This document shows, piece by piece, positions 13,143-42,769 of a stretch of DNA of 42,769 nucleotides. The notes beneath the pieces were generated by a model. That model searched no databases and had not been told where the DNA came from. It saw only the letters and a list, made by a program, of their open reading frames with translations. Origin of the DNA: Anaerolineae bacterium. GTDB taxonomy: Bacteria > Chloroflexota > Anaerolineae > Epilineales > Epilineaceae. Positions within the stretch are counted from its first letter, which is position 1, and each line of letters starts with the position of its first letter. The DNA is taken from assembly GCA_029262755.1 (NCBI GenBank), contig JAJCYU010000237.1, positions 1 through 42,769 of the forward strand. Direction: 5' to 3'. Made by a program: the position numbers and the translations under genes.

Positions 13143-13150
13143 GGCGGCGG

Positions 13151-13159
13151 ATTGTAGCA
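13151..13159 (-). promoter_or_regulatory. Extended -10 (TGcTACAAT), probable leaderless transcript
   Basis: TGCTACAAT-ccgccgcc-ATG. Same 8-nt spacing as at 436 and 463, and no Shine-Dalgarno sequence. Confidence 0.6.
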
Positions 13160-13182
13160 GCCCCCGCGCCGGCGGGCGTGGG

Positions 13183-19455: not shown

Positions 19456-22400
19456 CTACCACGAACGCGGTGCGATGTAGTCCAGCCAGGCCGCGACGAG
19501 CAGGAGATCCGCCTTTCCGACACGGCCGTCTCCATCGAGATCGGCCAGCCGGTCGACCGGAGCCCGGCCGAATCGCGCCGCGACGCGGACGAGGTCCACG
19601 ACGTCGATCCGTCCGTCCCCGTTGTGGTCGCCCGCCGGCAGAACGGCCGTCGGCAGTTCGGCCGTGCTGCCCGCGCCCAGCGCGGGGCGGGCCTCTACGC
19701 GCAACCAGCCTTCGCGGAAGGCGGATACGACGCGCACACCGGGCGGTAGGCCGCACAACTGGAACGCGCCCGAAGGTGCCGTGCGCTCCAGCGGCAACCC
19801 GTCCACGGCCAGCCATGCCCCATGCCTCCCACGGCCCGGCAAGCGCACCTGGCCATCCACGCACGCGGTTTCGGACCGGGACCGCGCATCGATGTGCAAC
19901 GAACGCCCGGCCGCGGCAAGCACCTCACCTTCGGCGCCGCGTGCGATGACGCGGAACGCATAGTCGCGACCGGCCGGCAGCGGTCCGGAGAGCCATTGTC
20001 GGACATCGCCGGTCGAAGCGCCGTCGCCGGGTGGCACAACGGCAAGCGGCGCGAAGGGTGCCGAGCCGCCGCGGCCTTCGATGAGGTAGTCGGTCTCACC
20101 TTCGACCACATCTTCCCAGGTGAGGAAGGCCTGGCCGTCCCCAAAGGCGGTCGCGCTCATCGGGACATTGACCGGTAGCACCTCGACGAAGGCGAAGCCC
20201 GTGTTGTTGTCGAGCTGCAGGTCCGGCGTGTCGGAATCGACGATGACCGTGTTGGTAAAATGCAGCGCGGGTTGACCGGCGCCCGGCACGGAGAGCAGCT
20301 GGCCGGTCACCTCGTAGTCCACCCGGCCACCGCTCGGAATGTCGCCCAGCGCACAATTGATTCGAAAGTCGTCCAACCGCACGCACCCTGCAACGAGCGT
20401 CGTGCTGATCAGCCGCACCGCCGCGGGGTCCGTCGACGTGAGGGTATCGCTGACCACCGTGTTTAGGGCCGGGATCGGGCCGTTGTTGATCACCGTAACC
20501 GTGTAGGTGATCAACTCGCCCGCGATGGGCAGCGTTTCCGTAATGCTCTTTTTGATGAACAGATCGGCGGTGAAGGCCGGATCCACGATGCGCACGGACG
20601 CCTCATCCGTGTCGTTGGACGGATCGGGGTCATGCCCGCCGTTGGGCTGGCTGCTCGTGGCGGTGTTGGTCAAGACGCTACCGAAAAAGCCGCCGTCGAC
20701 GACGGCCACGATATCGAAGGCCGCGCTTGCTCCGGGCAGGATATTGCCGAGGTCGCATGCGAGGGTGCCGACCGGGCCCTGTACACAAGAGTCGGTGTCG
20801 GACAGGTAGCTCAGGCCGGCGGGCAGCGTGTCGGTCACGCGCACATCGCGCGCTAGGGCCGGACCGTCGTTGACCACCTCGAGGGCAAAGGTGACCGCAT
20901 CGCCCGTGGTCGCGTACGGCGGTGCGCCGTCCTTGGTCAGCGCAAGGTCCGCGGGGGCGTCGACATCGGTGACGTGCGTGCTCGTGTTGTTCGCGACGTC
21001 GACCTCTGCTTGGTCCGCGGCGACGTCCGCCCGGTTCACCAACTGGCTGCCCGCGGGCGCGTCCGCGTCCACGTCGACCACCACGGTCAGGGCCGTCGAT
21101 GCACCGCCGCCCAGGTCGCCGAGGTCGCAGGCGAGCAGGGGTAGCCCGGAGGTGTCGCAGCCCGCGCTATCGGTGACGTAGGTCACGCTGACGGGCAAGG
21201 TGTCGCTGATGGCCACGTTGGTGGCGGTCAGCAGACCGGTGTTGGTGATCGCGAGCGTCCAGGTCATGCGCAGGCCCGCGCTCACGCGATCGGCGAACAA
21301 GGCCACGCCGGGCGGGGAGCCGTCCGTCACGACCTCGCCGACGCCGGTCTTGTGAATCGCAAGATCGACCCCGACCCCTACCGCAACCTCGGCGCTGTCG
21401 GCGTTGTTGGACGGATCGGGATCGGGCGTGTCCGACGCGGTGCGCGCCACGTTGAGCGCAACCTGTCCCGTGAGGGTCAATGTGGCCGTGGCGTAGATCT
21501 CGACCACCGCCGTGCCGGCGGCCGCTAGATCGCCGAGCGCGCAAACGAGTATCGGCAGGCCGCTCGTATCGCAGACCGGCGAGGAGCCATCGAAGCTCAT
21601 CCCGGCCGGCAACGTGTCGGTCACTACCACGGACCGTGCCGTGGACGGGCCGTTGTTCGTGATCGCGAGGGTGAAGGTCACGGCCTCGCTCGCCGCGACG
21701 GACGTGGGATCCACGCGTTTGCTGAGCTCGAGATCGGCCCACCGGCCCACCGTGGTCTGTTGCTCGGCCGTGTTGTTGCTCGGATCGGGATCGGGCTCGA
21801 GGCCCCGCACGCCCGTGCTGTTGGTCAGCACGGTGCCCGCGTCCAGATCCCCATCGACGTCGACGACCACGATCACCGCGGCGCCTGCGCCGTTGGCGAG
21901 GTCCCCCACCGTGCAGGAGAGCTGCGGCAGGCCGCTCGTATCGCAGGCCGCATCATCGCTTACGTACAAAGTCCCCGCGGGCAGGGAATCGCTCACCACA
22001 ACGCCCGTGGCGTCGTCGGGGCCGTCGTTGATGACGCTCAGCGTATAGGTCAGGCGAGCACCGGCCGTGACCTGATCCGGTATGACCACGACCAGCGGCG
22101 GGCTACCCGCCGCGGTGACCGCGCCGGCGCCGCTCTTGGTGATGCGCAGATCCACGTCGGGCAGCTCGTCGACCACGTCCACGGAAGCGGTATCCGTGTT
22201 GTTGCTCGGATCGGGATCGCCGCCGCCGGTCAGTACGGCCGTCGCACCGTTGGTCACCGTCTCGCCGGCGGCCCCCGTGGCACGCGCGACGAGCTGGAAG
22301 CTCGCCGTGCCGCCCACCGCAATATCGCCCAGCTCGCAGCTGAGCACGGGTAGGCCGGTCGTGTCGCAGCCTGCGTCGTCGGACTCGTAGGTCAGGCCGG

Positions 22401-31400: not shown

Positions 31401-34400
31401 CGTTGATCACGGTCAGCTGGTAGGTCAGGCTCGTTCCGGCCACGACCGTGGACGCCGGCGCGCTCTTCGTGACACGCAGATCGGCCTCGAACACGGGCGT
31501 CACCACGGCATCATCCGTGTCGTTGTCCGGGTTCGGATCCAGGGCGCCCGGCACCGTGACCGTGGCGACGTTGACCAAGGTGGTGCCCGGCGGGAAGTCC
31601 TCGTCCAGTAGCACCGTGATCTGGAAGCTCTCGCTGCCGCCGCTCGGGATGAGCCCCACGCTGCAGGTGAGGACATCGGGGTCGCTGCCGGCCGGCACGC
31701 AGCCGTCCGTGTCGCTGACGTAGCTCACGCCGGGCGGCAGCATGTCGACCACCGTGGCCGCGGGAATGTCGTCGGGGCCGTTGTTGCTGACCTCGATGGT
31801 GTAGGTGAGCGGGCCTCCCGCCACGGGCGTGAGATTGCCGGCCGTCTTCTCGATGGCCGCGTCGAGGTCTAGGAACGGCAGATCGACCGGCCGCTTGTTG
31901 ACGTAGAGGTCGTCGTCCTCGGTGGGGTCGTAGAAGAGCTTGACGCGCACGGTTTCTGTGACGCTACAGCGGGCGTCGAAGAAGGGTGCGTAATCCGGGA
32001 TACCGTTGCCGTTCTCATCCAGGAAGGGCGGATCGAAGCGGTTCACCGGCGGGATCAGCGCCGTGTCCCACGTTGCGCCCGCGGCCGCCACCTCGCTGTG
32101 CGATAGGCCCGGCAGGTCGTTCTCGTCGTCGAAGGGGCCCGGATCCGCGCGCGTGCAGCCGTAGAAGGCCAATCGGCTGACCGGGCTGCGCCAGTTGAGC
32201 GTCAGCAGATAGCGCTCGCCCTCCGGCAGCGCGATCTCGGTGTAGTCGCCCGGCGTCACCGCCTGCTGGTGCGTCTCCCACCCGTCCTCCGCGAATTGGT
32301 CGTCCGTGCCGCTGCCCGGCCTGTAGGTTTCGCGCAGCTCGTGCGCGAAGCGCTCCTCCGGCTCTTCCTCCGTGATTCGCTGCTCCTGCGGGCCCGCCGC
32401 CGCCAGCTCCCCGACGCAGGCGTCGTAAAAGTTTTGGTTTGCAAACTCCGCTTCTTCCATCCGCTCCACGTCCACCGCGATCGTGTGGTCCGCGTTGTAG
32501 GGCGGCATCACCGACATCTGCGGCGGCAATTCGTCCAGGAAGTAGCCCTGCTGGAACAACGAGTCCTGCGGGTTGAAGTAGTTGCCCTTCGGCACCGGCG
32601 TCCGGATCGTCAAGAAGGCGAAGCGGTCGTTGCACTCGGCCGGATCGCTCGGATCACCGTCCGGCGCCGTGCGCGTCATCAACGCCACCACGTTGTACTC
32701 GTGGCCGTCCACGTAGAAGCGCTTCAGGTACCACGGGTCTCCGGGCGTCAGGTCGTGGCGGCCCGCCCCGTCGTCGATCGCGGAATGCGTCGCGCCCAGC
32801 GCGCGGCCGAGCGTCAACGTCACCCGCTCGCCGTCCTCCGAAACGCTCTCCACGAACACGAACCAAGCGCCGTCGGTCATCCCCGCGTTCGTCTCGCCCG
32901 GCTCGATCACCGTCACCGAGTCCTGGAAGCGGTCCACGACCGCCACAGAGCCCACGTTCAGCGTCCGCGTGCCGCCCACCTGCTCCGGCACCGCGCTCCC
33001 GATCGTCCCGCCCGTGAAGTAGAAGCGCAGCTGCGCCCGCGGGTTCGTCCCGCTCGTCACGTTCTCCACCGTCACCAGGTGGTCCAGCATCATCGCCGCA
33101 TGGCCGAAGGCCGGATCTCCGGCCTCCGCGTCCAGGACGATGCTCTCCACCGTCAGCACCACCATCTCGTTGCCGTTGAGGCTCACGCAGTCTGCGTCCA
33201 GGGTGTCGGTCAGCAGCCCGTCGCCGTCGAAGTCCACCATTGCGCCCGGCAACGGGATCACGGGCACCCCGATCGGCGGCTGCGGGCGGTTCGCGGCGAA
33301 CGTGCTCGAGAAGTATTCGTTGGCCGACGCCTCCGTGTGCAGCCCCACCGCGTCAGGGAAGCCGTCCCAATCCGCGTCGAAGCCCGTCAGCCCGTAGCCG
33401 AAGCCGCCGCCCGCCGGCAGCGTGCCGCCGAGGTTCGGACGCGGCAACTCCGCCGCGCCCACCGCGATCGGGAAGGCCATCCGGCTGCCGGGCACCGGCA
33501 CGCTCACCGGGTTGTCGGTCGTGTCCATCATCAGGTACGTGAATTCCTGCATCACCGCGGGGAACACCAGATCCGCGTCGCAGTCGTCCGTCTCGCGCAG
33601 CTTCGTCACGTATTCCGGCTGGTACCACGTGCGCTGGTACACCTTCTGCCGCGCGTTCATCCCCGCGTTGCTGATCTGCTGGTAGAGCAGCCGCAGCGCC
33701 TCGCCGAAGTTGCGGAACTCGTCCATGTAGGCCGGGTTGAAGGTCAGCAGGTCCCCGCGCGGCGCATCCGGAGCCTGCGGGTTGAAGGGCGCGAAAGGGT
33801 CCGTATACGGCGGCACTTCCACCGGCAGGCCGGCCGGATCCGTCGCAAGCACGTCGCCCGCGCCGAAGACGATGTCCGGACGTGAGGATGCGTCCGTGCA
33901 ATCGCCATCCGGACAGCGCGGATAGCCGCCGTGCAGCCGCAGCCCGTCATCGTTGGTGTAGACCGGGTCCATCCGGTCGGGGTCGTATACGAAGCCCGCA
34001 CGCTGCGGCGCTCCGTATTGCCCCGTGCCCTCGTCGAACTGTGCGTTGTCTACCACCAGGTCGGGCGGCGTGGGAGGAACGTTGTCCGGCACGTCATCGT
34101 CCGGCTGGCTCCACAGCCGTCCGCGCGACGTGGGGTTGGTGAAGCCGGTCGTGACGTGATAGGCGTCCGGTTCGCATAGCTCCGAGAACCCGCTCTGGTT
34201 CGGCAGGTAGAACTCCGTGTAGTTCCACGGCCGCGTCCACATCTGCTCGTTGAAGAAGAAGGGCTCCTGGCCGCTCGCACCGGCTGCCAGCGGGTCCTCC
34301 GCGCCGTACTTCTCGCGCAATTGTCCCAACATCTGCGGGTTGACGTCTTCGTCGACATAGAACCAGCGACTAGCAAAGAAGAAGTCGGCGCCCTGGTAGG

Positions 34401-36216
34401 GGCCAACCGGCGCATTCGGATCACGGCCCATGTAGCGGTTGCCGTCCACGTCCGAAAGAATGGGTGGCACCGGGCCGACAGGGCCGCCCATGTACAGGAT
34501 CTCCGGGCGCGGTTGCGGGTCGAATAGGTTCGGCGATGCGCCTTCCACCGGGCACGGTCCGATCTGGTCGTCCGCCACCACGACCACGTCCTCCAGGATT
34601 GTGTGCTCGTGGTTGAAGGGCGGCGGCAGCACCAACGGGTCCAGCTCCGCGTACGGCTCCAGCCGCACCGAATGCTGCTCGATGGTCACCGGCACTTTCG
34701 GCAGCGGTGCGCGCAGCGTCAGGTACTGCAGCTCCGTCGATGAACAAGTCTGAATCGCCACCACGTTGTACTCGTGCCCGTCCACGTAGAAGCGCTTTAG
34801 GAACCACGGCGCGCCCGGTGAGAGGTTGGCGGTGTTCGGCCCGTCCTCCATCGACGCGCAGGGCGCGCCCAACGCGCGCCCGACCATCACCGTCGCCGTG
34901 TTGTCGCCCGCATCCGTCGCATCCAGGTACACGAACCACGAGCCACGCGGTACCGTACCCAGGTTGTCCCCGCCCGGGCCGATCCGGTCCTGCACGGGGA
35001 TCGGGCCCACGTCACCCGCCAGCGCCGCGCTGCCCTGGCCGAGGCTGATCGTCGCCACGAGTCGCGGCTGCAGGTCACCGCTGTACCAGATCTCCAGGCT
35101 CGCCGAACTCCCCGACGCCGAGCGCAGGCGCACGAAATGGTCCAGGAACTGCAGCATTTCGCCCGCTTCCAGGATCTCCGTATCCGTATGCATCACCACC
35201 ATCGCGTCACACGAGAGCGGGCCGGCCGGGTCCAGGTCGTCCACCACCCCATCGCCGTCGAAGTCGATCGTCAGACCCAGGTCCGCGGCCAGCTCGCGCT
35301 CGCTCGTCACGTTGATCATGTCGATGTCGCCGTCGAAGTCCGCGTCCAGGCTCGTGAGCCCCTGGCCCTCCGCCGGCGCCAATGGATCCGTTGCCGGCGC
35401 GAACGTACCTACAGGGAACACCCAGCGCGTCGCCCCCGCCGCGCCGCAGGTCGGCCGCGGCGCCTGGTCGTCCACCTCGTCGCCCGTCGGTCCTGCGATC
35501 GGTAGCTCGTTCTCCGTCAGGAGGTAGGTCAGCTCCGTCATGATCGCCGGGTACCACTCGTCGTCATTGGATGGGGTCGGGTTCACGGGCGCATCCGGCT
35601 GCCCGTCGAAGTCATTGTCCGTCAGGCAGTCGTCCGCGTTCAGATCCTTGTCCAGGTGCGTCGGCTCGTACCAATGCCGCAGCCAGACCTTCTCCGCGCC
35701 GTTTACGCCCCCCGCCCGGATGTTGCTGGCCGCGCTGACCTCGTCGATGCCGTTGGCGCAGTCCCAATCCGCGGCCACGCTCGGCTCCCCCAGCCGCTCG
35801 CTGATCCACGCCGGATCCCACGTTACGAAATCGAAATTCGGTGCCTCGGGAGAGAGCGGACTGAACGGACCGCGGGGGTCCGTATACGGCGGATCTTCGG
35901 GCACGCGCCCCGTGTTCGGGTCGGTCACCGTATCCGATCCCGCCGTCGCCGGGCGATTCGCTTGCCCCACGATGCACCCGTCGCATACAACGCTGTCGCC
36001 GTAGAGGCGCAGCGTGGTCAATTCGGGTAGCCCTGCCTGCGTGTTCGGCGCGGCGACGGGAGCACCCGTCGGTGCCACCGTAGGCGCAGCGGCAACGGTC
36101 CCCGCCCATAGCCCGGCCCCGCCGAAGACGGCCAGCAGCAAGGCGGCAAGTGGGATACGCGGACCAAGGCGCGTCGCGGGTGAGCGCGCACCGAGCTCGG
36201 GGCGGTTGGTGTCCAT
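19456..36216 (-). CDS. Giant secreted surface protein (5586 aa): signal peptide, duplicated head domain, 30 DUF11-type repeats, Fn3-like domain, X-module/dockerin-like end
   Basis: Uninterrupted 16.8-kb ORF with AGGAGG before the ATG. Signal peptide RIPLAALLLAVFGGAGLWAGTVAAA. Repeat consensus ADL.I.K...G..LTYTL.V.N.GPS.A..V.VTDTLP.G..Y......C........C..G.L..G.......V.V.......N.A.V....DPDPSNN.D. C-terminal GDHNGDGRIDVVD and ADLDGDGRVGKAD. Confidence 0.9.
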   Translation of the reverse strand: MDTNRPELGARSPATRLGPRIPLAALLLAVFGGAGLWAGTVAAAPTVAPTGAPVAAPNTQAGLPELTTLRLYGDSVVCDGCIVGQANRPATAGSDTVTDPNTGRVPEDPPYTDPRGPFSPLSPEAPNFDFVTWDPAWISERLGEPSVAADWDCANGIDEVSAASNIRAGGVNGAEKVWLRHWYEPTHLDKDLNADDCLTDNDFDGQPDAPVNPTPSNDDEWYPAIMTELTYLLTENELPIAGPTGDEVDDQAPRPTCGAAGATRWVFPVGTFAPATDPLAPAEGQGLTSLDADFDGDIDMINVTSERELAADLGLTIDFDGDGVVDDLDPAGPLSCDAMVVMHTDTEILEAGEMLQFLDHFVRLRSASGSSASLEIWYSGDLQPRLVATISLGQGSAALAGDVGPIPVQDRIGPGGDNLGTVPRGSWFVYLDATDAGDNTATVMVGRALGAPCASMEDGPNTANLSPGAPWFLKRFYVDGHEYNVVAIQTCSSTELQYLTLRAPLPKVPVTIEQHSVRLEPYAELDPLVLPPPFNHEHTILEDVVVVADDQIGPCPVEGASPNLFDPQPRPEILYMGGPVGPVPPILSDVDGNRYMGRDPNAPVGPYQGADFFFASRWFYVDEDVNPQMLGQLREKYGAEDPLAAGASGQEPFFFNEQMWTRPWNYTEFYLPNQSGFSELCEPDAYHVTTGFTNPTSRGRLWSQPDDDVPDNVPPTPPDLVVDNAQFDEGTGQYGAPQRAGFVYDPDRMDPVYTNDDGLRLHGGYPRCPDGDCTDASSRPDIVFGAGDVLATDPAGLPVEVPPYTDPFAPFNPQAPDAPRGDLLTFNPAYMDEFRNFGEALRLLYQQISNAGMNARQKVYQRTWYQPEYVTKLRETDDCDADLVFPAVMQEFTYLMMDTTDNPVSVPVPGSRMAFPIAVGAAELPRPNLGGTLPAGGGFGYGLTGFDADWDGFPDAVGLHTEASANEYFSSTFAANRPQPPIGVPVIPLPGAMVDFDGDGLLTDTLDADCVSLNGNEMVVLTVESIVLDAEAGDPAFGHAAMMLDHLVTVENVTSGTNPRAQLRFYFTGGTIGSAVPEQVGGTRTLNVGSVAVVDRFQDSVTVIEPGETNAGMTDGAWFVFVESVSEDGERVTLTLGRALGATHSAIDDGAGRHDLTPGDPWYLKRFYVDGHEYNVVALMTRTAPDGDPSDPAECNDRFAFLTIRTPVPKGNYFNPQDSLFQQGYFLDELPPQMSVMPPYNADHTIAVDVERMEEAEFANQNFYDACVGELAAAGPQEQRITEEEPEERFAHELRETYRPGSGTDDQFAEDGWETHQQAVTPGDYTEIALPEGERYLLTLNWRSPVSRLAFYGCTRADPGPFDDENDLPGLSHSEVAAAGATWDTALIPPVNRFDPPFLDENGNGIPDYAPFFDARCSVTETVRVKLFYDPTEDDDLYVNKRPVDLPFLDLDAAIEKTAGNLTPVAGGPLTYTIEVSNNGPDDIPAATVVDMLPPGVSYVSDTDGCVPAGSDPDVLTCSVGLIPSGGSESFQITVLLDEDFPPGTTLVNVATVTVPGALDPNPDNDTDDAVVTPVFEADLRVTKSAPASTVVAGTSLTYQLTVINGGPSSATDVVMTDELPPEAAFVSSSRPDLCTLFGGTTLVCTVGDLAAGAAVTVDVTVDVPPNVPAGTLLENDVTVEGSRPDPDPTNDEDDADVIVVAEADLALSKDAEPNPVTAGESLTFNFVVSNLGPSDVGNAQVVDTLPAGVTFVGSVGAACSGVANGGTGTLTCQVGAVPAGGSVPFAILVDVDADVPAGSQITNEGTVSAPGTTDPDPGNNTDDAVVDVIAAADLSLTKDGPDEVFPGTEFDWTVTVFNGGPSDAVGVVISDTIPAGTTYVSASGAACGGVAPGGTGTLVCAVGPLAVGASADVVVRLRVDDGLSDGTVLTNDAVVGADTPDPDSGNNDATDTITVRVRADLAIIKDSLDPAVAGGSMAFELTISNAGPSTATGVLVTDTLPAGMSFTGSDPACVEAPPASGALSCALPDILPAGMATVVITVSLDADLAAGTVLLNRAGVGATTPDPDLSNNTDDESVTVARLADLRIAKVDGPDPVVAGTTLRYTLTVTNDGPSDAANVEVVDVLPANTSFQGSSIGCVEAPSGTIRCGLGTLAAGATTAFTVDVLVDSDVPGGDMLVNQATVDSDEPDPSPGNNSDSESTTVVAEADLAIEKRASQSPVVAGENFAYTIVVTNTGPSAAPDVVVVDVLPAGLTHLNNTGGCLEAPAGTLTCNLGLLPAGSTTSFSVVVTVAADVADGTLITNTAVVDSGADDPDPSNNSDDDTVVVAASADLAVEKSAPAMAEPDEQIAYGLTVTNNGPSDAVNVVVTDTLPVSVTFVMAVGASCVEAPTGTITCDLGDLGAMAVTAFNIVVVVDSDAPAGGVLRNIALVGSDTPDPESGNNEDEAQTTVDPRFEADLRLTKDSLEATPGAGTFFSYRIMVFNDGPRTATGVVVTDTLPAGVSYQFDSDSCVQGPVGTLVCSLPDLMAGAFASFTITVRVDDDAPAGAVLTNTATTGSDVPDPNPGNNTDTADVTIVPRVDLAVTKTGSENPVAAGALLTYGLLVENLGPSDATGVVVTDTLPAGVSYLSDGGGCDASGLPVLVCTVGPLSSGASTLIEIVVRVGAGAADGATLTNTVVVGGNEDDPEPDNNDDSLETDVERVADLAISKDVSRDEQVPGGPLTYTLTVNNLGPSDTTGVLVTDTLPAGTSYVSDDAGCDASGEPTISCTLGNLAAGATVVVTIVVQVDPGAAAGTLLDNVAEVGGDNPDPDPSNNEDEARTVVTTLADLRVLKSGAGEVVTGPAPDDVTVTPNAVTAGRRLTYTLSVTNGGPTDATGVTVTDTLPAGVSYANDDAGCDTFGLPALRCDIGALAAGSTVIITIGVDVDADVVPFASLINTVVVGGDDPDPNLGNNDDDQTTLVLVAADLGIEKVASPSQVTTGDPVVFSITVTNYGPSLARDVLVEDTLPMSLTYVSDSAGCDTSGLPTLSCLLGDLAPGASTGFDITATVEAGLAGQSVSNTASVQLTGGGTDPNPSNDQDTDGFDVVAEADLALRKTGEGAVVVAGSPPGLVQTPNAVTAGERLTYTLLITNTGPSPATAVVVTDTLPAGTSFVSGAGCDASAAPVIVCAVGSLAAGAATSVVIVVDVAPDVADGSSLLNTAEVGANEIDPDPSNNSDDQTTIVSGFADLAVVKIADPTTVGVGELVTFTITVANGGPSTAFGVVLTDTLPAGLLYESDDAGCDTSGLPLVVCALGDMPSGAVAVVELAARAEASGADQTVTNTARVALSDGADPDPSNDEDDATVGIRPLVDLSVAKAGAGEVVVPGSPPGTSILPNSVTAGRRLTYTLTASNVGPSTATNVVLTDTLPSGVSFVSAGGASCNTVGLPTLVCNLPDLSAGGMAVVVVVVDVDADVPDGTLLTNLAGVRADEADADPSDNTVSQETDVSASADIAITKTATPDDQAPLGLVTYTLLIQNLGPSDADGVVVTDTLPADTTYVSDDGGCDTSALPTVVCSVGSLAAGASTSIEIVVQVDLTAAPGASLTNSATVGADTDDPDPSNDTDTATTTVIPQADLRIVKSGEGEVVGQGSPPIVTLQSDTVTAGRVLSYTLTVINGGPSSASGIVFTDTLPSGMTHLSDDAGCDASAPPLVVCAIGGLAVGSSASVVVRVQVDSGLADGAQRINTVLVTAVEDDPDTDNNDAQQTTTVLVAADLAIVKTADPSVAVEGQQVVFTMDVTNNGPSLARDVVVEDTLPISLTYVSDSAGCDTSGLPTLSCMLGDLAAGASTSFDITATVEAGLAGRSATNTATVQLTGGGSDPDPSNDTDDAIVVVREPDPGEADLAIDKTGEGEVVTPGSPPTVVVTPDAVSAGRRLTWTLFVSNAGPAGATGVTVTDTLPAGTSYVSDSAGCDTSALPVLVCALPNLAAGANTSFQIVADTDADLLDGSVLDNMAVVGGSTPDGNPSNDSATHRTVVGAVADLVITKTADPRILAPGDATTFTLRVTNLGPSVARGIAVTDVIPAGLTYVSDDAGCDATGLPTLTCGVADLGPGAFDQLRIVATATGATDTAWINTATVDLGGGSDPDPSNNSDSDTVEIRESVTPVDLSIDKTGAGEFVTSSTPPGLAIVPGIVTAGRRLTYTLTVRNEGAVAATGIRISDTLPAGVTFVAASTVCDISGAPVILCDAPNLGPGAMATVAVSVDVSPDVVHFHVLHNEARVDAEQPDENPGNNEAAQDTVVFVSADLAVTKTAEPGVIDEGAAVTFVLTATNLGPSLGGDVVVSDTLPAGLTYTSDDGACDTSALPTILCDAGDLAPGASAVIRIMATAAPGTAGQTLTNEAEVQLTGGGTDPDPANDTDSADVDVDMSAAGDRVDLAIDKTGAGAVTQPGSPPGVAVVADQVTAGNRLTYTLSVSNAGVLAASGVVVTDTLPAGTTFVSADVPCDTSGAPIIVCTVGAVAGGGNAVVTLLVDVAPGVAGGSVLQNDVTVGGDQPDDNPGNDEASQSTTVSELADLALTKTAEFGVVEQGELITFSIRVDNLGPSLGRGVRVLDTLPAGLTYESDDAGCDTTGLPVLSCELGDIAVGGTASFQLVARATGAAGETVTNGATAVLTGGGDPDPSNNTDTASVDVVDELPDVDLRITKSGAGAVTAAGSPPLVVVIPDQVTAGARLTYTLSVINDGPDDATGVVVSDSLPAGTLYVSDDAACDTSGLPQLSCTVGDLANGAGAAVIVVVDVDGDLDAGTVLTNSTGVRGLEPDPDPSNNTAEQQTTVGRWADLELSKRVDPTSVAASEAVTFTLAITNNGPSTARSVVVTDTLPAGMSFDGSSPVCDTSGLPILVCALGDLAAAGTAVVEIYATATLTLTGQVALNVARTASDTPDPDPSNNADSAEVAVGVGVDLAIHKTGVGEVVTDGSPPGVALFADRVSAGLRMTWTLAITNTGLLTATNVAISDTLPVSVTYVTDSAGCDTSGLPLLACDLGDLGGGASTALTVVVDVDADAPAGSQLVNRADVAADQAEVDVANNTSTHVTDVDAPADLALTKDGAPPYATTGDAVTFALEVVNDGPALARDVRVTDTLPAGLSYLSDTDSCVQGPVGTLACDLGNILPGASAAFDIVAVVDGGFFGSVLTNTATSSQPNGGHDPDPSNDTDEASVRIVDPAFTADLFIKKSITETLPIAGELITYTVTVINNGPIPALNTVVSDTLTSTDPAAVRLISTTLVAGCVRLDDFRINCALGDIPSGGRVDYEVTGQLLSVPGAGQPALHFTNTVIVDSDTPDLQLDNNTGFAFVEVLPVNVPMSATAFGDGQAFLTWEDVVEGETDYLIEGRGGSAPFAPLAVVPPGDGASTGDVRQWLSGPLPAGRDYAFRVIARGAEGEVLAAAGRSLHIDARSRSETACVDGQVRLPGRGRHGAWLAVDGLPLERTAPSGAFQLCGLPPGVRVVSAFREGWLRVEARPALGAGSTAELPTAVLPAGDHNGDGRIDVVDLVRVAARFGRAPVDRLADLDGDGRVGKADLLLVAAWLDYIAPRSW
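20175..31872 (-). repeat. Array of 30 DUF11-type (Ig-like, ~120-140 aa) domains within the giant CDS
   Basis: Hand count of 30 'D(L/A/I)xxxK' starts, each followed by an N.GP...(V/I).D.LP-type segment and a DP.P.N-type end. Confidence 0.85.
31890..36018 (-). repeat. Internal tandem duplication of a ~690-aa head domain
   Basis: Paired motifs in the same order: LRLYG/LRLHG, PPYTDP, EKVWLRHWYEP/QKVYQRTWYQP, YPAIMTELTYLL/FPAVMQEFTYLM, GRALGA, LKRFYVDGHEYNVVA (copies 2073 nt apart) and LTLRAPLPK/LTIRTPVPK. Confidence 0.9.
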
Positions 36217-36396
36217 GGGGCCTCCTCGGCCTTGTCGTGCGACGCCTCGGATAGCGGTACGAGGGGGAGCAGGCGTCGCCGGTACTACATTCGCTGTACT
36301 CTTTAAGAGACGGGCGGAGCGACCGGCCCGAGCACGTGTGTGGAACTACGCAAATCGCCGTCCGTTCTCCAGGATGCCCGAGGAACGGGGGCGCGC

Positions 36397-36405
36397 ATGA
36401 TACCA
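36397..36405 (-). promoter_or_regulatory. Extended -10 (TGgTATCAT) for the 5586-aa gene
   Basis: TGGTATCAT in a locally AT-rich patch ~180 nt upstream of the ATG. Confidence 0.5.
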
Positions 36406-36787
36406 AATTGATCCGTGCAGCAGACATGCACGGCAACCGCACCGCCAACACGACAGACCGACGCCACTCAAGAGCGAGCAACACGGGGCAACACGAGGCG
36501 ATGCGCATCGTCGCGCAGATGCACCTGGCGGCCGGCGCGGCGATGCACCCTCGCGATGCTACTGCCTGTGACGCTGCATCGTGTCCGATCGTCACGCTCA
36601 GGTTGCAGGCAGCCACCCTAGGAGACGGCGCGACACGCCCTAGGTTACAAATTGGTTTCAGCGTAGCTCTGTGCGATTCGAAACGGCCCGCCTACATCGG
36701 CTCGGCGATCCAATGGCCGCGAAATTTCGAAGTCCGGTGCCTGGGCAAAGCGAATACCGAGCGCGCGGATGGACGAAACGCCCCAGC

Positions 36788-36842
36788 GCGGCCCTGCATG
36801 CGGCCCTGCATGGGGCCCTACGCTTTAGTCCGCCCTGCATGC
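36788..36842. repeat. Short 12-nt tandem repeat in the intergenic region
   Basis: GCGGCCCTGCAT occurs twice (36788-36811), followed by a degenerate third unit and GCCCTGCATGC at 36832-36842. Confidence 0.6.
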
Positions 36843-36913
36843 CGGGCGTGGTGGTGCTCCAACCGTAGCGCCCAGCGGCACTCGATTCACCGGAGCAATC
36901 TTTCCGTTCGCCC

Positions 36914-39900
36914 CTACCGCTGCACCAGCGGCAAGAAGATAGTCTGCGCATCGTGCCCACCGGTCTCGTCCGGAATCAGCTCGATGCCCTCGACCCGCAC
37001 GGGAATCTCACCCGCTCGCGGGTCCAGCAACCGCACGAGCTCCACCGAGAGCGCTTCCTCGGGCGCGGTTTCGTCGCCGACCGCCTCCAGCACCGCCGTA
37101 GCAAGCACCAGGTCACCGCGCATCGCCGGCGCGGGCCGAGCCCTGGTGGCGGCGAAGCGCAGCGATGCGCCGTCGCGCGTGGCCAGGTTGCGCGCCACGA
37201 AGGCGGCGTCGTCGCCACCCGTCCACCACGACGCGCCTGTGCCCAGCTGCGCGCCCGGCTCGTAGGCGTCCAGATCGACCCACCGCGCACGCGTCGGATC
37301 GAGCACGAGGCGTAGGTCCGCGCCGTAGACATCGCGCACATTGCGCACGGCGACGCGGACCACACGGCGGCCGTCGTCCTGCGCCGCCGCCTGGAACGTC
37401 AAGCTCGCCGCGCCCGAACCGGCATCGGATCCGCCCGCGACCCCCACCATCACCTCGGGCAGCTGCGCCTCGGACCACCATGGCAGCGGCCCGACGCTAT
37501 CGAGGCTGCCCGATACCATCACGATATCGAAGCGATCCACGCGGCCGTCCGCGTTGACGTCCGTCGCCGCGGGTCGCGGCTCGCCGTCAAGGGCTGCGCC
37601 GACGAGCACGAGGTCGGCCAAATCGACGCGACCATCGCTGTTGACGTCGCCGCCCGGCAGCGCCGACCACGGCAACTCGGTCTCGCGACCGGCCGCCACG
37701 GAGGTCATCGCCGCGATCGCAAGGTAGCCCGGCTGCCACGTGGCCAAGGCGTGCAGCCCCGGTGTGGCCCCGCACAAGCGGAAGCTGCCGCTGCGGTCGG
37801 TACGCGCCGCCGGGATCCCGTCGATGCGTACGATGGCGCCGTCGTGGCGCGAACGGCCGTCCAACGCGAGCTGGCCGACATAGCACCCGCGCGTCGCGGC
37901 CGGCGCCGAAGGCACGTTCGCGAAGCGCCCCATGGACGCGCGTGGCTCCATGGCATTCGTGACCGGATCGTGCACGACCACGCGGAATGCGGTGTACGAG
38001 CCTGCGGGAAGGGCCGGCGACGTCCAGGTGTACCGGTCGCCCGTGTCGATCGTCGAGCGGCTCGGCAGCGCCGCAACGGGCACCCACCCGGAGCCCGCGC
38101 CCATGGCTTGGATCTGGAACTCGCTCTCCGTGGTCGTATCGTCGATCCACGCCAGGCTCATGCGGCCATCCCCGCCCAGCGAGGAGCCCACCATGAAGCT
38201 GCCGCCGATGATCTCGAACCACGCGAATCCGCTGTTGTTGTCCAGGTTGAGATCCGGCGTCTGCGAGATAATCTCCACCGTATTGGTGACGAAGTGACTG
38301 CCCGTCGGCGGCACGAAGTTCAAGCGCCCGTTCACGAGGAACTCGATACTCGAACCCGAAGGAATGTCGCCCAGCGCGCAGGTGATCACCGTCGCACTGT
38401 CTACCGAGCACCCAGGATAGGTCGTGCTCTCGAGCGTGACGATGCCGTCCGTGGTCATCTCGAGCACGTCCGTAATCATCACGCCGACGGCTGTGATCGG
38501 ACCGCCGTTCGCGGCCGTCACCGTGTAGGTGATCAGCTCGCCGGCGGAGGACATGGTCTCGGTGATACCCTTCTTGACCGTAAGGTCAGCCGTCAGATTG
38601 GGATCGACAACGTCGACCTCGGCCTGATCCTCGTCGTTGTCCGGATTGGGATCATCGCCGGGCGCCGGCAGGGCGACACGTGCCGTGTTGGTGGCCGTGG
38701 TGCCTTCCAGCCCTGCCTCGACGCGCGCGACGATCTCGAAGGTGGTCATATCGCCCGCTGCGATATCGCCCGCCTCGCAGCGAAGCACACCGCTGGCCGG
38801 CGGGATCTCGGAGCACGAATCCGTGTCCGATACGTACGTAAGCGACATCGGAAGGGTGTCTGTCACCACGACGTCCCGCGCAAACGAAGCGCCGTTGTTG
38901 AGCACCGTGATCTCGTAGGTGACCTCTTCGTTCGTGGTCACCCACGGCGGATCCGCTCGCTTCTCGATCGCGAGATCGGCCTGCTCCCGTACGAGCGTGT
39001 CGTGCGTGGCGGTGTTGTCGCCGGTGAGCATCTCCGGCTGGTCGGAGCCGACGACCACCGTGTTGGTCAACACGGTGCCTTCCGTCTCGACGCTACGGAC
39101 AAGCCCAACCAAGGTCACCGTAGTCGATGCGCCCGCCCCGAGGGAGCCGAGGCTGCACACGATCTCCGGCATACCGCTGATGTCGCAACTCGCGTCGTCG
39201 GAGACGTGCATCACGCCGGGCGGCAACGTATCCGTGATGACCACGCCCGTTGCCGTCGAGACGCCTGCATTCGTGATGGTGAGCGTCCACGTGATGAGCA
39301 TTCCGGCCGTCACCTCGCCCTCGACGAGGGCGACGCCCGGCGGATCGCCGGCGGTCATGACCTCGCCGACCCCGGTCTTGGCCACCGCGAGGTCGACGGG
39401 GATGCTGACCCCGAAGTCGACCTCGTCGTGGTTGTTGCTCGGATCGGGATCGTCCGTGTCGCTGCTGACGTCCGCCATGTTCGTCACGATCATCTCTTCG
39501 AGAGCCGCGGTCGGTTCCGCCGTGATCTGTAGCGTGACGACCGCGCCAGGGCCCATGTCCCCCAAGGTGCACACGATCACCGGCGCACCCGAGACATCAC
39601 ACTCCGGATCCGCCGCGACGTTCGTCATACCGGTGGGCAACGTGTCGGTGACCACGACGCCGAGCGCCGTGGACGGACCCAGGTTGCGGACCGTGAGCGT
39701 GAAGGTGATGGTGTCGCCGCTCGCGACGCTCGACGGATCGGCGTCCTTCTCAACCGAGACATCGGCCGATGCGTCGACGTCTGTTTCCTGGGTCGCGGTG
39801 TTGTCGGCCGGGTTCGCCTCGTCTTCAATGGCGTAGGCTTCCGCGGTGTTCGTCAGGACGGAGCCGTCGGCCACATCGTCATCGACATCGACGACGATGC

Positions 39901-42769
39901 GAACGACCACGCTGGCGCCGGAGGCAAGGTCCGGCAGGTCGCACACGATGTTGGGCGACGCGTCGACGCAGCTCGCGCCGTTGGACGACACGAAGCTTAC
40001 GCCCGCGGGCAGGGTGTCGGTCAGCACGATCCCCGTCGCCAAGGACGGGCCCGCGTTGTTGACGGTCAGCGTGTAGGTCACGCGTCGACCGGCCGTCACC
40101 AGGTTGGGCAGCAACGCAATCGCGGGCGGGCTGCCCGGCACGACGACCTCGCCGACGCCGGACTTCGTCACGCCAAGGTCAACGCGCGGCGGGATGGTGA
40201 TCGTCTCGTCATCATCGTTGTCGGAAGGATCCGGATCCTCGCCCTCGGTCAGCCCGACGATCACCGTGTTGGTGAGCATCGAGTCCTCGAAGCCGGGCAG
40301 AACCTCGGCCACGATGCGCACGGAGGCCATCGCACCCGGCGATAGATCCCCGAGCCCGCACACAATCTGCGGAAGAGCGCCGATGTCACAGCCCCCGTCA
40401 TCCGAGACATAGGCCAGGCCCGCGGGCAGGGTGTCGGTCAGGGTAACGCCCGTTGCGACAGATGGCCCCGCGTTCGCGGCGGTCAATGTGAAGGTCACTT
40501 GCTCGCCGGTCCCGACCACGCTTGGGTCGGCCGACTTCAGCACAGCGACGTCGGCTGCCTGGTCGACGATGGTCGTCTGCGACGCATCGTTGTCGGACGG
40601 ATTCTCCTCGACCTGATCCGCGCCGACGGTGGCCGTGTTGACCAACGTCGCGCCGTGTGGAACATCCGCGGCGACATCCACGATGATGATGATGCTCGCC
40701 GTGCTGCTGGCGACCATATCGGGGAGCCCGCAGACCAACTGCGGCAGCCCGGAGGTGTCGCAGACCGGATCCGAGGCTACAAAGCTCGTCCCCGCCGGCA
40801 GGGTGTCCGTCACGTATACACCCGTGGCCGTCGCCGGCCCGGCGTTGGTGATCGCGAGGGTGTAGGTCAGGCGGCGCCCGGCCGTCACGCGGTCGGGCAG
40901 CACGGTCACGCCCGGCGGATCGCCGGCCGTGACGACTTCGCCCGCGCCGCTCTTGCCGATCGAAAGATCGAGCGTTCGTTCGACGTCGACCTCGTCGTCG
41001 TCTTCGTTGTCGCTTGGATCGGGATCCTCGTCATCGTGGCCGACCACGGCCGTATTGGTGAGGGTCAGCCCTTCCGTGCCGGCGTCGACGCTGACCACGA
41101 TACGCACGCTCGCCGACGAACCGGCTGTCAGGGTGCCGAGATCGCATACGACGACGGGAAGGCCACTCGTGTCGCAACCCCCGTCGTCGGAAACGTAGGT
41201 GACACCGGCGGGCAACGTGTCCGTCACGGTCACGCCGCTCGCGTCGCTTGGTCCGTCGTTGGTGACGGTCAACGTGTGGGTGACCGACGAGCCGACGGCC
41301 ACGATGGCCGGTCGCGCGGTCTTGATCAACGACAGGTCCGAGACGGAGCCTACCGTGGTCGTCTGGTCGTCGTCGTTGTTCGTATCGTCCGGATCGGCTT
41401 CGTTGCCGCCGACCTCGACCGTGTTGAGCAACAACGTACCGTCGGCAAGCCCCGCGTCCACATCCACCGCGACGGTGATCATCACCGTCGTCCCGCTTGT
41501 CATGGCGCCGATGGAGCATACGAGCGTCGGCAGACCGCTGCTGTCGCAGCCGCCGTCGTCCGACACGTAGGTCACGCCGGCGGGCAGCGTATCCGTGATC
41601 GTCACGCCGGTCGCATCGCTCGGGCCGCCGTTCGTCACGCTCAAGGTGTAGGTCAGGCGGCGCCCGGCCGTCACGGCATCCAGCACGATGGCCGTGCCCG
41701 GCGGATCACCGGCCGTGGTCACCTCGCCGGCGCCGCTCTTGGCAACGCGCAGATCCGCCAGGGCCGTAATCTCGGTGTCCGTAGAGTCGTCGTCGTTGCT
41801 GTCATCCGGATCCGGATCGTCGCCACCGACCACGACCGTGTTGGTGAGGATGGAACCGGCTGCGACGTCGAGATCGACGCGGGTCACGATGGTGATCACG
41901 GTCGAGCCGCCGGCCGCCAGGTTGCCCACGGAGCACACGATCTGCGGCAAGCTGCTGGTATCGCAGCCCGCGTCGTCCGACTCGTAGCTGAGCCCGCTCG
42001 GCAACGTGTCCGTGACGGTCACGCCCGTTGCGTTGCTCGGGCCGAGGTTATCAACCGTCAAGATGAAGGTCAGCAACTGCCCCGGCGCTCGCTGGTCATG
42101 CGAGGCCTGCTTCGCAACTCCCAGGTCCGTGCTGCGCTCGACGGTGACCGTCGTGTCGTCGTCGTTGTTGCCGTCATCTGGGTCGGGCTGGTCGCCGCCC
42201 GTTGTCGCGCCATTGGTCAGCAACGTGCCGGCGGCAAGGCCACCGTTCACGCGCACCACGACCACGACGCTCGTGCTCGCGCCATCCGGCAACGAACCCA
42301 GATTGCAAACGATCTGCGGCAGACCGCTCGTATCGCAGAACGCATCGTCCGACACGTAGCTCACGCCGGCGGGCAGCGTGTCGGTCACGGTCACACCCGT
42401 GGCGTCCGAAGGTCCGTTGTTGGTCACCTGCAGGGTGTAGGTAAGCAGCGCGCCGGCGACGACCGGATTGTCGCTGGCCGTCTTGACCAGCGCCAGGTCC
42501 ACCCGCGGCTGCAGCGTGACATCCACGGTATCGGTGTTGTTCGTCTCGTCGGGATCCGGGATGTCGGAGCTGGTCACGGCCGTGTTTGTCAGCACGGAGC
42601 CGGCCGGGGTCGCCTCATCCGCCCGCACGGTGATCGTGAAGCTGTAGGAGCCGCCGGAGATCAGGTTGGGCGCGCTGCACACCAGCGTGCCTACAGGGCC
42701 CTGGACGCAGGAGTCGCTGTCGAACTGATAGGTCACACCGGCGGGCAGCGTGTCGGTGACGAGCACGCC
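36914..42769 (-). CDS. Second giant DUF11-repeat surface protein, 5' part outside the window: at least 12 DUF11 repeats, Fn3-like, X/dockerin-like, cohesin-like, FLPLVQR C-terminal motif
   Basis: The frame is open to the window edge and the repeats are collinear with the 5586-aa protein. Dockerin-like GDVNSDGRVDLAD and TDVNADGRVDRFD. Cohesin-like VRVAVRNVRDVYGADLRLVLDP...FVARN....G.LRFAAT...PAMRGDLVLAT. Ends TIFLPLVQR. Confidence 0.9.
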   Translation of the reverse strand, partial: GVLVTDTLPAGVTYQFDSDSCVQGPVGTLVCSAPNLISGGSYSFTITVRADEATPAGSVLTNTAVTSSDIPDPDETNNTDTVDVTLQPRVDLALVKTASDNPVVAGALLTYTLQVTNNGPSDATGVTVTDTLPAGVSYVSDDAFCDTSGLPQIVCNLGSLPDGASTSVVVVVRVNGGLAAGTLLTNGATTGGDQPDPDDGNNDDDTTVTVERSTDLGVAKQASHDQRAPGQLLTFILTVDNLGPSNATGVTVTDTLPSGLSYESDDAGCDTSSLPQIVCSVGNLAAGGSTVITIVTRVDLDVAAGSILTNTVVVGGDDPDPDDSNDDDSTDTEITALADLRVAKSGAGEVTTAGDPPGTAIVLDAVTAGRRLTYTLSVTNGGPSDATGVTITDTLPAGVTYVSDDGGCDSSGLPTLVCSIGAMTSGTTVMITVAVDVDAGLADGTLLLNTVEVGGNEADPDDTNNDDDQTTTVGSVSDLSLIKTARPAIVAVGSSVTHTLTVTNDGPSDASGVTVTDTLPAGVTYVSDDGGCDTSGLPVVVCDLGTLTAGSSASVRIVVSVDAGTEGLTLTNTAVVGHDDEDPDPSDNEDDDEVDVERTLDLSIGKSGAGEVVTAGDPPGVTVLPDRVTAGRRLTYTLAITNAGPATATGVYVTDTLPAGTSFVASDPVCDTSGLPQLVCGLPDMVASSTASIIIIVDVAADVPHGATLVNTATVGADQVEENPSDNDASQTTIVDQAADVAVLKSADPSVVGTGEQVTFTLTAANAGPSVATGVTLTDTLPAGLAYVSDDGGCDIGALPQIVCGLGDLSPGAMASVRIVAEVLPGFEDSMLTNTVIVGLTEGEDPDPSDNDDDETITIPPRVDLGVTKSGVGEVVVPGSPPAIALLPNLVTAGRRVTYTLTVNNAGPSLATGIVLTDTLPAGVSFVSSNGASCVDASPNIVCDLPDLASGASVVVRIVVDVDDDVADGSVLTNTAEAYAIEDEANPADNTATQETDVDASADVSVEKDADPSSVASGDTITFTLTVRNLGPSTALGVVVTDTLPTGMTNVAADPECDVSGAPVIVCTLGDMGPGAVVTLQITAEPTAALEEMIVTNMADVSSDTDDPDPSNNHDEVDFGVSIPVDLAVAKTGVGEVMTAGDPPGVALVEGEVTAGMLITWTLTITNAGVSTATGVVITDTLPPGVMHVSDDASCDISGMPEIVCSLGSLGAGASTTVTLVGLVRSVETEGTVLTNTVVVGSDQPEMLTGDNTATHDTLVREQADLAIEKRADPPWVTTNEEVTYEITVLNNGASFARDVVVTDTLPMSLTYVSDTDSCSEIPPASGVLRCEAGDIAAGDMTTFEIVARVEAGLEGTTATNTARVALPAPGDDPNPDNDEDQAEVDVVDPNLTADLTVKKGITETMSSAGELITYTVTAANGGPITAVGVMITDVLEMTTDGIVTLESTTYPGCSVDSATVITCALGDIPSGSSIEFLVNGRLNFVPPTGSHFVTNTVEIISQTPDLNLDNNSGFAWFEIIGGSFMVGSSLGGDGRMSLAWIDDTTTESEFQIQAMGAGSGWVPVAALPSRSTIDTGDRYTWTSPALPAGSYTAFRVVVHDPVTNAMEPRASMGRFANVPSAPAATRGCYVGQLALDGRSRHDGAIVRIDGIPAARTDRSGSFRLCGATPGLHALATWQPGYLAIAAMTSVAAGRETELPWSALPGGDVNSDGRVDLADLVLVGAALDGEPRPAATDVNADGRVDRFDIVMVSGSLDSVGPLPWWSEAQLPEVMVGVAGGSDAGSGAASLTFQAAAQDDGRRVVRVAVRNVRDVYGADLRLVLDPTRARWVDLDAYEPGAQLGTGASWWTGGDDAAFVARNLATRDGASLRFAATRARPAPAMRGDLVLATAVLEAVGDETAPEEALSVELVRLLDPRAGEIPVRVEGIELIPDETGGHDAQTIFLPLVQR

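Follow-up and report, generated by a model that had tools for sequence, protein, structure and literature searches.

Giant DUF11 fibre proteins of an Anaerolineae bacterium end in cellulosome-type X-dockerin and cohesin modules that may hold the fibres together

We analysed a 42,769-nucleotide stretch of DNA (the window) that is an entire contig (JAJCYU010000237.1, here C237) of the metagenome-assembled genome (MAG) GCA_029262755.1, from an Anaerolineae bacterium of the phylum Chloroflexota; this 5.06-Mb MAG is split into 428 contigs and is 84% complete. Two genes of the window, which we call A and B, encode giant paralogous fibre proteins whose C-termini carry an X-module and a dockerin of the kind found in type II cellulosomal pairs. 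In B these modules are followed by a divergent cohesin, predicted to be closest in fold to type II cohesins, and by an ultrashort C-terminal motif, the YLP-box. We favour, with slightly more confidence than doubt, the idea that the giant fibres are held or bundled by pairing of the X-dockerin with the type-II-like cohesin and are retained at the surface by the YLP-box, and so can probably attach to one another or to the surface of the cell. The features of the two genes, in coordinates of the window, are as follows.

19456..36216, minus strand: gene A, 5586 residues, a predicted secreted giant with a signal peptide, two-repeat head, 30 DUF11 stretches, Fn3-like domain, X-module and dockerin
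36088..36216, minus strand: signal-peptide-like segment of A (approximately residues 1-43), recognised by eye as a basic stretch, a hydrophobic core and then ...VAA/AP
31867..36039, minus strand: head of A, approximately 1400 residues in two repeats, with no Pfam, NCBIfam or PDB relative
20182..31866, minus strand: DUF11 (Ig-like) stalk of A, 30 stretches matched by Pfam, boundaries approximate
19867..20160, minus strand: Fn3-like domain of A, from profile A4 against solved Fn3 domains, boundaries approximate
19636..19863, minus strand: X-module-like (CarboxypepD_reg-like) beta module of A with a conserved cysteine pair, from profile A5
19492..19635, minus strand: dockerin of A, two Ca-loop/helix halves, from Pfam Dockerin_1
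36914..42769, minus strand: gene B, at least 1951 residues, with at least 12 DUF11 stretches (12 matched by Pfam in the visible part), Fn3-like domain, X-module, dockerin, linker, cohesin and YLP-box tail
37898..38215, minus strand: Fn3-like domain of B, from profile A4, boundaries approximate
37655..37897, minus strand: X-module-like beta module of B, from weak CarboxypepD_reg matches and profile A5
37508..37651, minus strand: dockerin of B, from Pfam Dockerin_1
37409..37507, minus strand: linker between dockerin and cohesin of B, approximately 33 residues, modelled at low confidence (predicted local distance difference test, pLDDT, 47-51)
36992..37408, minus strand: divergent cohesin of B, predicted fold nearest type II, from homologues, AlphaFold2 (AF2) and Foldseek
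36917..36943, minus strand: YLP-box ultrashort C-terminal motif of B, ...TIFLPLVQR and then stop, NCBIfam NF053834

Genes A and B are collinear paralogues. The last 520 residues of A aligned collinearly with B at 43% identity over 527 columns, and the alignment placed the stop of A exactly at the start of the linker that leads to the cohesin in B. Read from its translation, A ends there, with neither cohesin nor YLP tail; a hidden tail or a relic cohesin downstream of A was considered and rejected because only 177 nt lie between its stop codon and gcvT. (Note that because the window is the whole contig and B runs off the contig end, the 5' end of B is lost.) GC content at third codon positions is 0.86-0.87 in the two genes, and their codon-position GC is consistent with genuine coding sequence.

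The original prediction on this DNA held that both giants end in an Fn3-like domain, a beta-rich module and a dockerin, and likened the last two to the X-module and type II dockerin of Clostridium thermocellum CipA. Both points were borne out. With the Pfam model Dockerin_1 (PF00404; cut-off 22.9 bits) the dockerin of B scored 34.8-35.5 bits and that of A 23.5-24.3 bits, the latter narrowly past the cut-off; a six-frame search of the genome placed the domains at 19492-19635 (A) and 37508-37651 (B), and a duplicated Ca2+ loop plus helix is readable in both halves of each. (The prediction had counted three dockerins; the window holds two, and the DFDGDG-type loops in the head of A are not called dockerin by Pfam.) The Fn3-like segments received no Pfam call; a profile of the segment from 18 family members (A4), searched against solved structures, matched Fn3 domains such as those of titin (E = 1.4e-11) and DCC (E = 5e-7 over profile positions 6-105). 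The beta module of B gave weak CarboxypepD_reg matches (E = 0.007-0.026), and the same model scored above its cut-off at the equivalent position in the homologues P0087 and P0141.

A profile of 20 family segments comprising X-module and dockerin (A5), searched against PDB sequences, matched the X-dockerins of Acetivibrio cellulolyticus ScaA (4wi0_B, 6.5e-11; 4u3s_B, 1.8e-10) and of CipA (2b59_B, 9.5e-10; 3kcp_A, 3.8e-9; 5g5d_B, 1.7e-8), as well as the type II X-dockerin chain 5k39_B (1.7e-8). Because these alignments span profile positions 29-135, and thus run from the C-terminal part of the X-module into the dockerin, the likeness to CipA is backed by homology; judged by these profile matches, the beta module and dockerin together are homologous to the type II X-dockerin dyad of CipA and ScaA. 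Type I dockerins were matched at 1e-5 to 1e-2 only, and the matches were confined to the dockerin part. Two cysteines of the X-module (positions 5 and 42 of the B segment) are invariant in 20 of 20 members of A5, which suggests a disulfide; the pair is not present in the cellulosomal X-modules aligned with A5.

The homology of the B tail to cohesins was established through relatives, because a direct Pfam match is absent: PF00963 (Cohesin) gave no match to the last 197 residues of B even at E<=10, and the B tail was not among the matches when the genome was searched in six frames with this model. (Of the HMM checks that the original prediction had proposed, those with Dockerin_1 and DUF11 therefore succeeded, whereas that with Cohesin yielded no direct match on the B tail.) A phmmer search of the genome with the B tail recovered C296_8017_10062 (9e-18), C57_350_9358 (5e-9), C8_40056_41366 (4.5e-7) and C60_7009_11148 (5e-7), and the stretch of the C8 protein that aligned to the B tail (residues 76-183) is the very stretch that Pfam Cohesin scores at 36.2 bits. 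Among 1.84 billion representative sequences, homologues of the B tail numbered 278 at E<=1e-3, 31 at E<=1e-10 and 0 at E<=1e-30. Of the best 150, the 107 of at most 520 residues were scanned with Pfam (the 43 longer ones being left out); PF00963 was present at E<=1e-3 in 75 of these and at or above its cut-off in 63, and 32 received no cohesin call.

An AF2 model of the B tail, made from a 38-sequence alignment, had a mean pLDDT of 80.5 and a predicted template modelling score (pTM) of 0.74, with core blocks at 90-96 and with the first 30 and last 20 residues poorly defined. Its strands lie in residues 34-172 of the 197-residue tail, which corresponds to window positions 36992-37408 and agrees with the cohesin-like segment that had been predicted at approximately 37410-36990; the model also has two short helices. 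(Type II cohesins are set apart from type I cohesins by an extra helix and beta-flaps.) A Foldseek search with the model returned 58 PDB matches at E<=1e-3, the top ranks of which were all cohesins with probability 1.00. Type II cohesins came first (1.5e-7 to 1e-6; ScaB Coh3, 4u3s_A, 1.5e-7; SdbA, 2bm3, 3.5e-7), followed by the non-cellulosomal cohesin of Archaeoglobus fulgidus (2xdh, 3.1e-5) and by type I cohesins (5e-5 to 4e-4; CipA approximately 1e-4). Identity to solved cohesins is 9-16%. Transitive homology and the predicted fold together lead us to take the B tail to be a cohesin. Of 301 sampled genomes of the phylum, 11 contain this cohesin subfamily, the present genome included, and it is usually multicopy where present.

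The complex that was modelled paired the B cohesin (tail residues 28-182, alignment A1) with the last 72 residues of A (alignment A2, consisting of seven dockerins of the same genome). This pair, whose modelling the original prediction had suggested, reached an interaction score (ipSAE) of 0.61 (0.59, 0.61 and 0.62 in the individual runs) compared to 0.00 for the best of three controls, and so passed a mark that 116 of 157 solved complexes and 2 of 215 mismatched pairs reach. The runs shared at least 96% of contacts, and the modelled interface is made of both dockerin helices (24-37, 54-64) and one cohesin sheet (61-64, 100-106, 119-125, 159-166). In silico, the A dockerin thus fits the B cohesin as a working pair would, the pass being no measure of a preference of A for the cohesin of B over others.

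The terminal FLPLVQR motif that the original prediction had pointed out is the true C-terminus of B. It is matched by NF053834, an NCBIfam model named 'ultrashort_CTERM, YLP-box putative sorting motif', which has a sister model, NF050076; the models comprise 10-11 positions, NF053834 having 10. The isolated B tail (197 aa) scored 13.3 bits with NF053834 (cut-off 10) and fell below the cut-off with NF050076 (12.1 compared to 15), and in a six-frame scan the B tail was the best NF053834 site of the genome (16.1 bits). As 'ultrashort_CTERM' implies, the ...IFLPLVQR of B stands at the extreme C-terminus, and the YLP-box differs from LPXTG, PEP-CTERM and PGF-CTERM signals in that neither a transmembrane (TM) helix nor a basic anchor follows it.

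Because the six-frame NF053834 scan was non-specific outside C-termini, a positional count was used in its place. The core [FYW]LP[LIVM][LIVMA] occurs 192 times in the 26,518 six-frame open reading frames (ORFs) of at least 100 residues in this genome. At least 30 residues follow the motif in 130 cases, at most nine in 40 and at most four in 22, and the 40 compare with approximately 7 expected from the internal rate; the core motif is thus enriched at C-termini in this genome. Seventeen ORFs with a C-terminal motif were scanned for families. Two are S8 subtilases and one is an M14 carboxypeptidase; VWA and NHL-repeat proteins come to two each, and SBBP, beta-helix, LTD and DUF4397 proteins are also represented. 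Four have no family, and the whole forms a set of exoproteins typical of the kind that bears sorting signals elsewhere. (As an observation in its own right, approximately 20 exoprotein-like ORFs end in [IV][FYW]LP[LIVM][LIVA]x(0-4)-stop with no TM helix after it, examples being C1_4052_5767, C3_3399_6746, C196_1824_3845, C253_2_1552 and C330_9250_12480.)

The best 150 cohesin homologues differ in their ends: [FYWH]LP lies within the last 22 residues of 49, a TM helix plus basic tail closes 19 others, and 4 have a dockerin end. A YLP-like tail and a TM tail occur together in 0 of the 150, and this mutual exclusion, as indirect evidence, fits a retention role for the YLP tail. Read directly, the C-termini of A and B both lack LPXTG with a TM helix and basic tail, and SLH (PF00395) had no match anywhere in the 84%-complete genome, nor in A or B; two sortase homologues of the genome scored above cut-off. 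The claim that A is devoid of an anchor accordingly stood as regards LPXTG-type and SLH signals, but A does have one N-terminal hydrophobic stretch. By eye this reads as a Sec signal peptide with an A-x-A-like site, and the site and the N-terminal layout are common to the C296 and C57 paralogues. We know of no processing enzyme for the YLP-box.

Residues 1-1450 of A match no Pfam or NCBIfam family and contain a head of approximately 1400 residues, built of two approximately 690-residue repeats (residues 71-544 compared to 761-1250: 30% identical, E = 8e-51) and carrying invariant DFDGDG-type acidic loops and a ...KRFYVDGHEYNVVA... motif. The head has no PDB sequence relative at E<=1 and no ESM Atlas match, and its confident AF2 model (pLDDT 76.5, pTM 0.83) has no Foldseek PDB match at E<=1e-3. 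(A wide VIA-align search gave a best Z of 6.8 over residues approximately 215-390, to class II fusion-protein-like folds and the Methanosarcina S-layer DUF1608; no fold was assigned, because by the tool's own note this Z is within the range of chance arrangements.) The head is the obvious candidate for what determines the binding of the fibres. It recurs in three further giant ORFs of the genome, C296_3_7727 (-), C236_21724_30378 (+) and C57_350_9358 (+), and in 42 loci (L017-L058) from 30 assemblies at 35-60% identity. These assemblies are labelled Anaerolineae, Anaerolineales, Ardenticatenales, Caldilineae (including 'Ca. Epilinea brevis') or Chloroflexota, and record titles show that the labelled relatives include wastewater-sludge MAGs.

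Thirty-three head ORFs reach a stop codon. Of these, 17 end in a cohesin, which in most of them is followed by a YLP-like tail; in 7 the last domain is a different one (...MYLDDVSVQVCY), 3 have a YLP end without cohesin and 6 have other or garbled ends; a stop right after the dockerin, as in A, occurs in 0 of the 33 (ORFs that extend beyond the 10-kb flank are not judgeable). Moreover, C57 unites head, X-dockerin and cohesin in a single 3003-residue frame, which ends inside the cohesin, and contig C296 repeats the order of the window, with the end of a cohesin-YLP fibre gene followed by a head-bearing gene. Because the B-type ending is the usual one and C57 joins all three parts, B is an ordinary fibre and not a dedicated receptor; the proposal that B is a distinct, anchored receptor for A was not upheld. 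Rather, B represents the canonical form of the family, of which A is a variant with plug but without socket and tail, both of which A has lost or never had.

Two sets of head proteins depart from this layout. Distant ones (L042, L044, L045, L047, L052 and L055) end in a conserved ...KTAMYLDDVSVQVCY domain and not in dockerin, cohesin and YLP-box, and the cohesin-bearing C60_7009_11148 (-) ends similarly (...AWMFLDDTEVSFCP); this end domain perhaps belongs to the InhA-like MAM type that the C3 carboxypeptidase also has. In three related MAGs (L021:2-6112, L023:1-4869 and L025:2-6745) a stalkless ORF ends approximately 35 residues past the head and is directly followed by a head-stalk-cohesin gene; these ORFs are either head-only paralogues or products of an assembly frameshift.

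In the model that we favour, each fibre would have a distal head, a long Ig-like DUF11 stalk, an Fn3-like domain and a C-terminal X-module and dockerin, and chains of the B type would continue into a type-II-like cohesin and YLP-box tail that A lacks. The X-dockerin of one chain would bind the cohesin of another in a Ca2+-dependent manner. Since plug and socket both lie at the C-terminal end, such chaining would tie C-termini together into a bundle from which stalks and heads point outward, and since A has a plug and no socket, A could join the bundle but not extend it. The YLP-box, as a putative sorting motif, would retain or sort cohesin-bearing chains, B among them, at the cell surface. The domain identities on which the model builds are solid; the geometry of polymerisation and an adhesive or structural role for the fibres are what we infer from them. 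The original prediction had its observations confirmed and its interpretation partly supported.

Several points weigh against the model. The pass of the modelled complex may reflect memory of solved complexes, since many cohesin-dockerin complexes have been solved; moreover, the alignments were small and custom-made, the pLDDT of the partner was only 56-59, and the one pair that was modelled compares with roughly 9 other cohesin-bearing ORFs in the genome. The Pfam Cohesin model is silent on the B tail, as described above, and the dockerin score of A is marginal, with a glycine at position 9 of the second loop. The YLP match, to models of so few positions, was lost when the B tail was scanned within a 700-residue piece, and the six-frame NF053834 scan rang in 10 of 14 control genomes. 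When run on 20 other YLP-tailed or cohesin proteins, the YLP models reported none at E<=1, a silence that we regard as uninformative because the B tail in a 700-residue query was missed too. That the motif serves as an anchor is our own reading, because our literature search found no paper on it and nothing relevant on C-terminal sorting signals of Chloroflexota. Lastly, the N-terminus of B is off the contig, and the MAG is incomplete and fragmented.

A census of the genome with family HMMs, another check that the original prediction had called for, revealed further X-dockerin and cohesin ORFs. X-dockerin and cohesin occur together in B, C296 and C266 (all with a YLP-like end) and in C57; an X-dockerin alone is found in A, C94 (CAP-like by eye) and C251, and a cohesin alone in C8, C60, C61, C194 and C284. 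Altogether the dockerin ORFs comprise two fibres, an M28/PA peptidase, a CAP-domain protein, C251 (no enzyme domain) and C94. As predicted, no glycoside hydrolase was present in any dockerin protein scanned, nor was a carbohydrate-binding module (CBM), in this 84%-complete genome; the system is therefore not a cellulosome in the sense of dockerin-tagged glycoside hydrolases on a CBM scaffoldin.

Small cohesin proteins of the genome are other candidate receptors for the dockerin of A. The C8 protein (C8_40056_41366 (+), equivalent to L016:1057-2367) has a signal peptide, a Cohesin match of 33.3 bits and three LysM stretches (134.2 bits for the model), and is by homology a candidate peptidoglycan-binding anchoring receptor. 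(Similar cohesin-LysM proteins, P0077 and P0025, are present among the metagenomic homologues.) The small C61 protein has a signal peptide, a Cohesin match of 33.5 bits and an end of ...IYLPIGLRTAALP, and its gene lies 866 nt upstream of a gene for a CAP-domain protein with a dockerin. On C42 a gene for a dockerin-bearing M28/PA peptidase is followed within approximately 10 nt by one for a small protein that has a YLP tail and weakly resembles a cohesin (18.6 bits, E 0.006; no Pfam match at 1e-4). (The two pairs of a dockerin gene with a small YLP-tailed cohesin or cohesin-like gene lie at C42:5323-8289 (+) and C61:2294-4826 (+).) Small cohesin proteins also adjoin head genes at seven loci (L048, L049, L050, L054, L056, L057 and L058). 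A and the other dockerin proteins might therefore dock mainly on small anchoring cohesin proteins, such as the LysM protein of C8 and the YLP protein of C61, and not on B, whose cohesin would then serve other cargo. This would match the classical logic of anchoring scaffoldins, but the modelled pair of B cohesin and A dockerin passed, and the fibres have themselves kept the dockerin-cohesin-YLP cassette, a conservation that speaks for actual use of the cohesin they carry. We consider docking mainly on the small proteins rather unlikely; it is also compatible with the bundling of fibres by their own cohesins.

Alternatively, the dockerin of a B-type chain might bind the cohesin of its own chain, forming a clasp that stabilises or masks the C-terminus without any polymer, in which case A would simply be a fibre that is released or otherwise held. 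The linker between the two modules, with its approximately 33 flexible residues and low pLDDT, would suit a clasp, and dockerin and cohesin are always neighbours in the cassette. Set against this are the tail-less X-dockerin proteins (A, the CAP-domain protein of C94, and C251), which need a cohesin on another chain because they have none of their own, and the precedent of Amy4 of Ruminococcus bromii, for which bands of more than 250 kDa are reported and multimerisation is inferred (PMC4611034); we judge a clasp improbable. Least probable of all, and by a long way short of convincing, is that the modules are unpaired, Ca2+-stabilised structural or glycan-binding adhesin modules whose cellulosomal likeness is ancestry only, a view in keeping with the strong divergence of the cohesin (9-16% identical to solved ones) and the marginal Pfam score of the A dockerin, but at odds with the co-occurrence of the modules in cassettes and gene pairs across many genomes and with a complex model in which both helices of the dockerin contact a single sheet of the cohesin while controls score 0.00.

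The neighbourhood of the two genes adds little to the argument. On the same strand, A is followed by gcvT, a GNAT gene and an MscS-like gene, with ftsK, yebC and ruvC farther downstream, and fusA lies farther along the contig on the plus strand; none of the neighbouring genes in the window is obviously linked to fibres. The 697-bp spacer between A and B had 0 promoter and 0 terminator sites in a scan, which is uninformative on co-transcription. Two minus-strand ORFs of 537 and 874 residues that overlap by 4 nt (window 9112-13346) have approximately 12 and 17 hydrophobic segments, respectively, and are predicted to be polytopic membrane proteins; a weak Proton_antipo_M match in the 537-residue ORF is the sole match for the pair. 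The MAG is also rich in giant ORFs (C209:3622-38286 (-) and approximately 45 others of at least 1500 residues, the longest having 11,555 residues), and because many giant frames run into contig ends we regard giant-gene families as a main cause of the fragmented assembly.

The closest known system is the type II pair of cohesin and X-dockerin of cellulosomes, which attaches their scaffoldins to the cell (CipA with SdbA, OlpB or ScaF; ScaA with ScaB Coh3; structures 2b59, 4u3s, 4wi0 and 3kcp). The order of X-module and dockerin is the same, the dyad is likewise C-terminal in a very large, non-catalytic protein, and the model of the B cohesin matches type II cohesins first. In contrast to that system, the host belongs to Chloroflexota and not to Bacillota; the carrier is a DUF11 fibre with a head of unassigned fold rather than a CBM scaffoldin with type I cohesins; dockerin and cohesin are on one chain; the cohesin carrier lacks an SLH or sortase signal and has a YLP-box end or, in C8, LysM repeats; and none of the scanned dockerin proteins has a glycoside hydrolase. 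Non-cellulosomal cohesin and dockerin modules in bacteria and archaea were reportedly surveyed by Peer et al. in 2009. The present modules resemble those of that kind, exemplified by the A. fulgidus cohesin 2xdh (the fold match at 3.1e-5), in occurring outside plant-cell-wall degradation, and differ from them in forming a conserved X-dockerin-cohesin-YLP cassette on fibres of several thousand residues with a genome-wide set of partners.

According to PMC4611034, Amy4 is a GH13 enzyme of ordinary size whose own dockerin was found experimentally to bind its own cohesin, with multimers inferred, and the anchoring protein Sca2 of R. bromii is described as resembling the cell-wall-anchoring ScaE. 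The amylosome of R. bromii is like the present system in being non-cellulolytic, in having both modules on one polypeptide (binding here being predicted) and in that dockerins of other proteins share the same cohesins; the giant stalk and YLP tail seen here are both absent from Amy4 as described. A survey of huge bacterial proteins mentions DUF11 and Dockerin_1 separately (PMC11573180). Going by titles and abstracts, the papers that we found on cohesin and dockerin in Chloroflexi are all metagenomic surveys of carbohydrate-active enzymes, and within that reach neither an X-dockerin-cohesin cassette as the standard end of giant DUF11 fibres of Anaerolineae nor its coupling to a YLP-box, nor the conserved head, was found described. 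Already known are non-cellulosomal cohesins and dockerins and the presence of both on one chain.

A wider reading, which we put forward tentatively and doubt more than we believe, is that Anaerolineae have a general, non-cellulosomal system of surface display in which a cohesin-YLP protein is the universal receptor, the X-dockerin is the cargo tag and fibres self-assemble as brushes. The cargo would then range in size from CAP-domain and peptidase proteins, which are small, up to fibres exceeding 5000 residues, and the C-terminally bundled brushes would display a head of new fold, with tail-less chains of the A type terminating the chain.

The pairing of cohesin and dockerin is understood almost only as cellulosome glue in Bacillota. 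Here the anchoring type of this glue, an X-dockerin with a type-II-like cohesin, is found on giant Ig-repeat fibres of Chloroflexota. If the predicted pairing is true, it would account for the holding or bundling of such fibres on a cell without SLH domains, would give a concrete, testable role to the YLP-box tail, which marks at least 20 exoprotein-like ORFs in this genome, and would add orthogonal cohesin-dockerin pairs for protein engineering.

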